From Promethearchaeota archaeon Loki_b31 (GTDB lineage: Archaea > Asgardarchaeota > Lokiarchaeia > Sigyniarchaeales > SOKP01): a stretch of 51,081 bases of DNA. Positions 1 through 43,126 of the stretch are shown here, piece after piece. Each line of letters opens with the position of its first letter. Positions within the stretch are counted from its first letter, which is position 1. The DNA lies in the NCBI GenBank assembly GCA_005222975.1, contig NJBI01000022.1:1-51081 (forward strand). The letters are read 5' to 3'. A model generated the notes under the pieces. The model worked only from the letters and a program-made list of their open reading frames with translations. It was not told the DNA's origin and did not search any database. A program made the position numbers and the translations under genes.

Positions 1-378
1 GACCCCCTTGTCGCTATATTGCCTTCAAACTTAGTATAATGCCGTTACCAGCGATGCATATTTGGGTAACAATATCTATAAGTCTTAAGGTTGGTTTCTT
101 GAAGATTCATCTTATCAATAACCCTACTATCCTTGTAATTAGTCAAATTCCTGCATTTAAAAATATCAATTAATGCCGCTCGAAATGCTGGTGATATTTT
201 AAAAAATCTTTAAGAATACGAAATTATTTAATGCGTTATAAATAGCGATGATCAAAATATTAAATTCATAACTGCTTACCTTAGCAGAGAAATACTTGTT
301 GAAAAAAAAAATATCATTTTTATATCCAAGGACAAGAACCCACTAATACAACCATTTATTGGCATAACACGTGCAGTC

Positions 379-567: not shown

Positions 568-898
568 TGGATGATTTTGAAGTAAATTGTTATATAAGAA
601 TAATTGAATATCTTGAGAAGGAACTGTATTCTCGTAGAGAAATTACAATTTTAGTAAGTAAGTCTTTACTCACTCTAATGAAATTAATGAGAGAAGGAAA
701 AAATAAGGAAGTTAAGAGAAGGAAAAAATAAGGAAGCATGAATCTAACAAGCAAGAGTTAGAAGATTTGAAAGTGGTTATAGATAAGAGATTTTTTTTTT
801 TACAGGAAAAAGTTAATGAAAGAGACTATCTTGAAGAGGATTTTTTTAAAGAGCTAATTAAAATGTATGCTAAAATTATCGAGAGGTTAAGGGAATAA
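567..898 (+). pseudogene. frameshifted small helical protein
   Basis: Starts MDDFEVNCYIRIIEYLEKEL..., is interrupted around a tandem duplication at 690-736, and resumes in another frame as ...KQELEDLKVVIDKRF...IIERLRE* (TAA 896-898). Confidence 0.35.
690..736. repeat. 22-bp direct repeat, period 25
   Basis: AGAGAAGGAAAAAATAAGGAAG at 690-711 and 715-736. Confidence 0.9.
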
Positions 899-34405: not shown

Positions 34406-34501
34406 TCTATAGTTTTATAATTAGTAAAACTTGTTAACGGCTTCAAGATAAGTGGTTTTATTAAATAATTTGCTCTTGAAATATAGAAAAAAGGAAAAGA
34501 G

Positions 34502-34681
34502 TGGGCCATCGGGGATTTGAACCCCGGATCTCAGGCTTTTACTGATATGGACATTTTGAATTATTTTGTCTGTCCATGGGTCAATTATAAGACCTGCGCT
34601 TGTTGACCAAGCTTCAATTAAGCCTTGTTAACCATTTCAGTAAACAAGATAAATTCTCGTTTAAAACTGAGCTAATGGCCC
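34502..34681 (-). tRNA. tRNA-Ile(UAU) with three introns (34635-34664, 34602-34628, 34537-34584)
   Basis: Spliced 75 nt: GGGCCAT TA GCTC AGTTTGGTTA AAGC G CAGGT CTTATAA GCCTG AGATC CGGGG TTCAAAT CCCCG ATGGCCC A; each intron has a BHB-like motif. Confidence 0.88.
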
Positions 34682-43023: not shown

Positions 43024-43126
43024 GCAGACATTGCCTAGCCTGGTACGGCGCCGGCTTGGAGCGGAAAAACGGTCCCAGAAAGCCGGTGTGTGAAAGCATC
43101 CGAGGGTTCGAATCCCTCTGTCTGCG
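43024..43126 (+). tRNA. tRNA-Ser(GGA) with a canonical 37/38 intron (43062-43080)
   Basis: GCAGACA/TGTCTGC acceptor, G73, anticodon GGA 43058-43060, long variable arm, GAGGG TTCGAAT CCCTC; BHB TTGG/CCAG. Confidence 0.93.

Follow-up and report, generated by a model that had tools for sequence, protein, structure and literature searches.

The Lokiarchaeon Loki_b31 very probably reads its AUA codons with a dedicated tRNA-Ile bearing the anticodon UAU, encoded by a single-copy gene on the minus strand of the stretch of DNA analysed here (51,081 nt, henceforth the window). This reading is drawn from the structure of the gene, from its conservation in the family to which Loki_b31 belongs, from the absence of a detectable TiaS in the same genomes and from the way in which AUA codons are used.

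Structure and detection of the gene

Homologs were collected by BLAST over 40 genomes of the same family, which gave about 30 homologous loci, and the exon joins listed in table 1 are fixed by those that are devoid of D-arm introns (L030, L032 and L013). Two of them, L030 and L032, read GCTY-AGNTTGGTTA-AAGC-G without interruption. Exon 1, at the 5' end of the gene, has on the minus strand the bases GGGCCAT-TA-GCTC-AG. Intron 1 is carried by five of 24 homologs and is missing in most, so that their D-loop reads AGNTTGGTTA, and the removal of intron 2 joins GGTTA to AAGCG, which corresponds to the uninterrupted D-arm of L030 and L032. The spacing of the TATA-like box from G1 suits an archaeal promoter, and the T-rich tract at the other end of the gene is likely to be an archaeal terminator; T-runs 3' of the discriminator occur in homologs too.

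Table 1. Features of the tRNA-Ile(UAU) gene and its surroundings, in 5' to 3' order of the gene; positions refer to the window.
Feature	Positions	Strand	Description	Basis
TATA-like box TTTAAAAA	34703..34710	-	22-29 nt upstream of G1; putative	read from sequence
Whole tRNA-Ile(UAU) gene	34502..34681	-	180 nt; mature tRNA 75 nt; CCA not encoded	sequence, spliced alignment to family homologs
Exon 1	34665..34681	-	17 nt: acceptor 5' strand GGGCCAT, U8 A9, D-stem GCTC, start of D-loop	
Intron 1	34635..34664	-	30 nt, D-loop 17/17a; helix TCAG/CTGA, bulges TT^T and AA^T, 8-bp inner stem	BHB scan
Exon 2	34629..34634	-	6-nt micro-exon TGGTTA, G18 G19 region of D-loop	
Intron 2	34602..34628	-	27 nt at 21/22; helix TGGT/GTCA, bulges TA^A and AC^A, inner helix CAAG/CTTG	BHB scan
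Exon 3	34585..34601	-	17 nt: D-stem 3' strand AAGC, G26, anticodon-stem 5' strand CAGGT, loop CTTATAA	
Anticodon TAT (UAU)	34587..34589	-	positions 34-36, inside CTTATAA	
Intron 3	34537..34584	-	48 nt at 38/39; central helix TTAT (34590-34587)/GTAA (34542-34539), bulges AA^T and AA^G	BHB scan
Intron segment GACC	34579..34582	-	fold-back onto G29 G30 U31 C32 of anticodon stem; alternative to spliceable fold	
Intron-3 hairpin	34547..34577	-	7-bp stem ATGGACA (34577-34571)/TGTCCAT (34553-34547), A-rich loop	
Invariant ACA	34567..34569	-	one base 3' of the hairpin's 5' strand	28/28 distinct sequences, adjacent columns variable
Exon 4	34502..34536	-	35 nt: GCCTG, variable loop AGATC, T-arm CGGGG-TTCAAAT-CCCCG, acceptor 3' strand ATGGCCC, A73	
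T-rich tract CTCTTTTCCTTTTTTCTAT	34483..34501	-	directly 3' of A73	read from sequence

ARAGORN reported no tRNA in the window and Rfam only another one, at 43024-43126; with the Rfam threshold relaxed to E ≤ 10, merely the T-arm of the tRNA-Ile(UAU) gene was matched, the gene as such being missed at the gathering cut-off. The 180-nt gene escapes both tools because it is interrupted three times. In its intron mode, ARAGORN called the gene SeC(tca), which is a miscall, and a Gly-like gene was likewise miscalled as Ile(aat). A blind enumeration of splice combinations proved uninformative, many anticodons being possible when neither a bulge-helix-bulge (BHB) motif nor comparative data constrain the choice. 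The Rfam match at 43024-43126 (plus strand, 42.5 bits) is a second intron-containing tRNA of the window, given by ARAGORN as Ser(GGA) with a 19-nt intron.

Comparative evidence for a functional gene

The spliced product has the features of a class I tRNA, i.e. all four stems, a 7-bp acceptor, U8, G18 G19, the T-loop and the discriminator A73, and the cloverleaf of the spliced 75-mer has a free energy of -28.7 kcal/mol, compared with -29.3 for the minimum-energy structure. The pair 13:22 is C.A here and U-A in nine homologs. A spliced alignment of the 24 cleanly resolved family homologs, which represent 22 distinct mature sequences, reveals compensatory changes at eight pairs, namely 2:71, 3:70, 5:68, 6:67 and 7:66 in the acceptor, 28:42 in the anticodon stem and 49:65 and 50:64 in the T-stem; the anticodon loop CTTATAA (with U33 and A37) and A73 are each present in 24/24. 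In a tool-made alignment of the anticodon arm together with its intron (alignment A1, 28 distinct sequences), the anticodon stem and the BHB central helix have standard pairs in 99.2% of cells, and the central helix TTAT/GTAA itself is kept in 27-28 of the 28 sequences. A covariance model built from A1 gave exactly one match per genome in 24 of the 25 sampled genomes of the family and one in the Loki_b31 genome, none in the family genome G040 (100% complete) and, at E ≤ 0.01, none elsewhere among 151 Asgard genomes. This pattern lies far beyond chance and, as judged from the alignments, is what one expects of a functional gene conserved as a single copy, as opposed to a pseudogene.

It seems extremely unlikely that we are dealing with a tRNA pseudogene, be it one in decay or one that cannot be spliced. 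One might be led to suspect it by the three introns, the exon of only 6 nt and the relaxed BHB motif of the anticodon intron (see below), as well as by the failure of the standard tRNA finders and by the fact that spliced RNA was not seen in metatranscriptome contigs. Against it, the stems are kept perfectly paired through compensatory changes across the 22 distinct sequences, the loop and the discriminator are invariant, and the gene is present as a single copy in nearly all sampled family genomes. Multi-intron tRNA genes are, moreover, normal in Asgard archaea (10.64898/2026.10.13.758758, PMC11291895).

The metatranscriptome contigs in question come from two runs of one study and cover only positions 34523-34635, inside the gene, with the flanks uncovered. 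They cross the boundaries of exon 2, intron 2, exon 3, intron 3 and exon 4 unspliced, with three base differences that all fall within intron 3, and no spliced joints were seen in the contigs of either run. We take them as a weak hint of transcription; they fit a precursor from a close relative, or contaminating DNA. Two of the contigs from these runs, 78 nt in length (34588-34635), are fold-back chimeras; they turn at 34635, which is a single base away from the predicted cut between intron 1 and exon 2. The turn could be a cDNA fold-back at the 5' end of an RNA or an artefact of assembly, and we do not take it as an RNA end.

Predicted splicing of the precursor

The predicted cut point of intron 3 lies two bases 3' of the central helix on each strand, which places the intron at 38/39. 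When the excision of the 48 nt is shifted by 0, -1 or -2 (38/39, 37/38 and 36/37), the product is identical, and the mature loop CUUAUAA is thus robust to the splice register, since a run of A gives the same product in all three. On its 3' side the motif has a 1x2 loop instead of a clean 3-nt bulge, with G39 paired to U31 and C32 placed opposite AA, so the BHB motif of intron 3, as folded here, is relaxed on that side; nor is the BHB fold the minimum-energy fold of the precursor according to the folding computation.

The preliminary description of this locus, made from the letters alone, had given the same coordinates, the anticodon UAU at 34589-34587, the loop CTTATAA, the GGGCC acceptor and A73, and all of these are present in the sequence, as are the central helix TTAT/GTAA and the intron site at 38/39. 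It had envisaged that another splice register might yield a different loop, which none of the three registers does. Its account of the splicing motif needs amending on the 3' side, where the bulge AA^G is not clean, and the single anticodon intron that it described is joined by two more (30 and 27 nt in addition to 48 nt). The pairing between anticodon and intron to which it drew attention exists, and is no more than the central helix required of every BHB intron at that site.

In an explicit scan, introns 1 and 2 each showed a BHB motif with both 3-nt bulges. For intron 2, the outer helix of the motif (exon bases G15 T16 T17 with A82 G83 C84 of the precursor) depends on the prior removal of intron 1, which suggests a splicing order around the 6-nt exon. 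The genome encodes RtcB and two proteins of the EndA family, each from an ORF of about 200 aa; going by the ORFs, the two-EndA arrangement matches that of heterotetrameric broad-specificity endonucleases.

TiaS and the use of AUA codons

The Loki_b31 genome (92% complete, 6% contamination, 31.5% G+C) yielded no TiaS_FLD domain (PF08489) in a domain search, and a tblastn search of it with two full-length Asgard TiaS proteins gave a best E-value of 0.53. PF08489 was likewise found in 0/25 sampled genomes of the same family (f1), many of which are 98-100% complete, and in 0/2 of the sister family (f2). Most of the other Asgard families have this domain, with 79 of the 151 sampled Asgard genomes positive, and all four archaeal controls have it too. 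A lineage without TiaS cannot use the usual archaeal tRNA-Ile2(CAU) modified with agmatidine. PF08489 is also missing from every sampled genome of the Asgard families f3, f12, f13, f16 and f21; among these five are a family whose closed genomes measure 1.4 Mb and another whose closed genomes measure 2.8 Mb. An AUA reader of these five families was not found by the tRNA model, by covariance model R1 or by patterns, and the Rfam tRNA matches of one closed f3 genome include Ile(GAU) and no CAU or UAU tRNA.

AUA accounts for 33% of the Ile codons of Loki_b31 in 1307 long ORFs (33 per 1000 codons) and is commoner there than ATG. One gene of the window has 15 ATA codons, and at these positions 35 orthologs have ATA, ATT or ATC in 69% of cells, Val codons in 16% and ATG in 1.9%; at the ATG positions of the same gene ATG is retained in 57% of ortholog cells. 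From its frequency together with this pattern, AUA is an ordinary and heavily used Ile codon. The comparison bears directly on the idea that the tRNA is charged with another amino acid, e.g. with Met as in mitochondria, AUA having been reassigned. A UAU anticodon left unmodified could in principle pair with AUG as well as with AUA; even so, a reassignment appears very improbable given how rarely ATG replaces ATA and how often ATG positions stay ATG, and A73 and A37 fit Ile.

Other tRNAs and distribution among Asgard archaea

The tRNA-Ile(GAU) of the Loki_b31 genome is encoded on contig C92 (about 600-697, minus strand) and has a 30-nt intron at 7/8, i.e. between acceptor base 7 and U8; this intron happens to contain CTTATAA, which gives rise to false pattern matches. 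The initiator tRNA-Met lies on contig C55 (about 250-362, minus strand) and is recognizable by A1:U72, the stem CAGGG/CCCTG and the loop CTCATAA, with a 31-nt intron in the T-loop. It is the sole CAU tRNA found, as an elongator tRNA-Met was not located by the simple scans that made up our census of this genome. The census is therefore incomplete, which leaves room for a hidden CAU tRNA.

We searched the Asgard sample for the D-arm body of the tRNA followed by an anticodon, with a reversed-pattern control that gave zero matches. The shared D-arm body is combined with TAT only in the TiaS-less families f1 and f2 and with GAT in many families. It is combined with CAT in TiaS-positive families (f5, f6, f11, f15, f18, f19, f20 and f22) and in one TiaS-less genus (g24 of f12), where it presumably represents elongator Met. 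No CAT version of the tRNA-Ile(UAU) body turned up in f1 or f2 in this search. In the TiaS-positive family f22 (genome G130, contig C12 at 381905 and 408305; loci L082 and L085), there are two different elongator-type CAU tRNAs, one of which has its D-arm in common with tRNA-Ile(GAU), as expected for Met and Ile2(CAU).

These searches bear on the most serious of the alternatives considered, in which the UAU tRNA is real and is accompanied by a second AUA reader in the form of a tRNA(CAU) that is concealed by an intron and modified by some enzyme, unrelated to TiaS, that has escaped recognition. The incomplete tRNA census, with the initiator as the sole CAU tRNA and elongator Met missing, would accommodate it, and other C34 chemistries have lately been found in bacteria and organelles (PMC11938285). 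We nevertheless hold a second reader to be unlikely, given that neither a TiaS domain nor a full-length homolog was detected in the 27 genomes of the two families, that these families have no CAT version of the body, unlike the TiaS-positive ones, and that a dedicated single-copy UAU tRNA kept throughout the family would be redundant. The UAU tRNA as the dedicated reader of AUA thus remains the preferred reading.

A tRNA-Ile(UAU) of its own is also encoded in the sister family, in genome G089 (L175:1476-1597), with the acceptor GGGATCG/CGATCCC, no D-arm introns and a single canonical intron at 37/38 with the strict helix CTTA/TGAG. This compact relative is useful for defining the ancestral gene. 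Other tRNA matches with CTTATAA were rejected: in f3 (Odin-sized genomes) the motif sits in a tRNA-Pro intron and in f12 in a tRNA-Gln intron, neither being Ile(UAU), and matches to short patterns across the phylum are mostly false positives in coding regions, such as those to a conserved motif of a membrane protein in f8.

The anticodon intron

All of the clean homologs (24/24) have the anticodon intron, which is 44-60 nt long. The other introns come and go among the same 24 genes: one in the D-loop is found in five, one at 21-25 in 21, one in the variable loop in three and one in the T-loop in nine. Within the anticodon intron, a hairpin (table 1) has 99% of its cells paired and compensatory changes at six of its seven pairs, with 0/500 shuffles reaching the observed score. 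The start of the intron (TGRCC) can also fold back onto exon bases 29-32, and these pairs are formed in 95.5% of cells, as against 74.7% for the nominal inner BHB helix; the fold-back has no double changes because its exon side is fixed. The intron of the sister family (L175) has an unrelated hairpin stem, TTAATGCA/TGCATTAA, again followed by T-ACA, and no fold-back. The distance from the ACA to U34 is 18 nt in the sister family versus 20 nt in the family of Loki_b31.

Neither an H/ACA nor a C/D architecture was recognised in intron 3, and an Rfam search with the threshold relaxed to E ≤ 10 was without an H/ACA match. In an H/ACA guide the ACA box would stand 3' of the lower stem; here the ACA is part of the apical loop. 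In the family of Loki_b31, U34 is the second base of an 8-nt loop, and the fold-back GGUC/GRCC, one unpaired base, the strand of the 7-bp hairpin and one further base place the ACA 13 nt beyond that loop. From the T-loop (second base U55) of a tRNA to its CCA there are also 13 nt. The notion that the intron mimics a T-arm and so sets the ACA at a measured distance is weakened by the sister family, which has no fold-back helix and has the ACA at 18 instead of 20 nt; such varying spacing argues against a strict ruler.

Conserved elements of a tRNA intron that act on their own tRNA before splicing are known from Haloferax, where the intron of pre-tRNA-Trp is a box C/D guide. The likeness is limited to there being a conserved element in a tRNA intron, the Loki intron being without C/D or H/ACA architecture. 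In yeast, the intron of tRNA-Ile(UAU) is needed for Pus1 to make pseudouridine at positions 34 and 36. It is conceivable, though on balance doubtful, that, while the precursor is still unspliced, the hairpin and the ACA act as a signal in it that brings a modification enzyme to U34, be it Cbf5, whose PUA domain binds ACA, or a different pseudouridine synthase. The modified wobble base would then recognise AUA to the exclusion of AUG. If so, the intron signal would be an archaeal counterpart of the eukaryotic intron-dependent Pus1 reaction. The Loki_b31 genome has a Cbf5 homolog and a single gene of the TruA/Pus1 family, with no extra Pus1-like paralogue found in it.

Comparison with known systems

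Among 167 surveyed archaeal genomes, tRNA-Ile(UAU) was found only in Nanoarchaeum equitans and Korarchaeum cryptofilum (PMC6000648), and it has also been described from ARMAN-2, -4 and -5, which were reported to be without TiaS and tRNA-Ile2(CAU) (PMC3239211). In Candidatus Korarchaeum cryptofilum and in ARMAN-2, as in the Loki gene, an intron lies at or near 37/38. The ARMAN-2 intron is only 25 nt long, whereas that of the Loki family measures 44-60 nt and includes the conserved hairpin and ACA; the Loki trait further differs from that of Nanoarchaeum, Korarchaeum and ARMAN in being fixed throughout an Asgard family and in its sister family as well, and in being based on a gene with three introns. 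Published work on multi-intron tRNA genes of Asgard archaea describes several BHB introns per gene and D-arm introns missed by annotators, with no mention of tRNA-Ile(UAU) or TiaS (10.64898/2026.10.13.758758, PMC11291895), and our literature search found no paper combining TiaS, agmatidine or tRNA-Ile(UAU) with Asgard archaea or Lokiarchaea. The strategy of a UAU tRNA without TiaS is hence already known in a few archaea, with no report for Asgard archaea found in that search.

Outside archaea, Mycoplasma mobile has a tRNA-Ile2(UAU) with U34 unmodified and A37 present as t6A, and no TilS (PMC3575796). As in Loki_b31, a UAU tRNA there replaces a system based on a modified C34; the differences are that M. 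mobile is a bacterium, that its tRNA has no intron and that it relies on adaptations of IleRS and the ribosome. The tRNA-Ile(UAU) gene of Cyanidioschyzon merolae has three introns, in the D-arm, the anticodon arm and the T-arm (PMC9602550). Eukaryotic cytoplasmic tRNA-Ile(UAU) generally resembles the Loki tRNA in combining the UAU anticodon with an obligatory intron in the anticodon loop. The partner tRNA is different, since eukaryotes pair tRNA-Ile(UAU) with tRNA-Ile(IAU) and Loki_b31 keeps tRNA-Ile(GAU); this partner and the single TruA-family gene set Loki_b31 apart from the eukaryotic tRNA-Ile(UAU)/Pus1 system.

The preliminary description had called the decoding of AUA in this genome eukaryote-like and had suggested that the lineage may use, or be shifting to, the eukaryotic solution. 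A route other than TiaS is borne out by the negative searches in Loki_b31, its family and the sister family. The eukaryotic likeness stands for the UAU tRNA and its anticodon-loop intron and fails for the partner, which is the archaeal GAU in place of AAU/IAU; nor is the solution peculiarly eukaryotic, a UAU tRNA without TiaS having precedents in Nanoarchaeum, Korarchaeum and ARMAN (PMC6000648, PMC3239211). A lineage in the course of shifting is not what we see, as the combination of a UAU tRNA with no TiaS is fixed, being shared by 13 or more genera of the family and by the sister family.

Proposed mode of AUA decoding and its implications

We propose that a 180-nt precursor is transcribed from the TATA-like box, that the splicing endonuclease cuts out the three BHB-type introns and that RtcB rejoins the exons, both enzymes being encoded in the genome. 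The product, as predicted from the sequence and the comparative data, would be a 75-nt cloverleaf with the loop C32-U33-U34-A35-U36-A37-A38 and A73. It would be charged by IleRS, and U34 would pair with the A of AUA, a step suggested by the anticodon, by A37 and A73 and by the status of AUA as an Ile codon. The UAU tRNA would in this way replace the TiaS/tRNA-Ile2(CAU) system, as in Nanoarchaeum, Korarchaeum and ARMAN, and AUU and AUC would be read by the separate tRNA-Ile(GAU).

As the standard tRNA finders miss the gene completely, automated annotation would list these genomes as having no AUA reader. The split between AUA (Ile) and AUG (Met) is among the few points at which the three domains of life use different machinery. 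To our knowledge, the eukaryotic cytosol has neither TiaS nor TilS and uses instead a UAU tRNA with a conserved anticodon-loop intron. The gene described here makes it testable whether the eukaryotic solution to reading AUA came by inheritance from an archaeal ancestor, and cultured Lokiarchaea, if they carry it, would offer a system for learning how an archaeal UAU anticodon avoids AUG.
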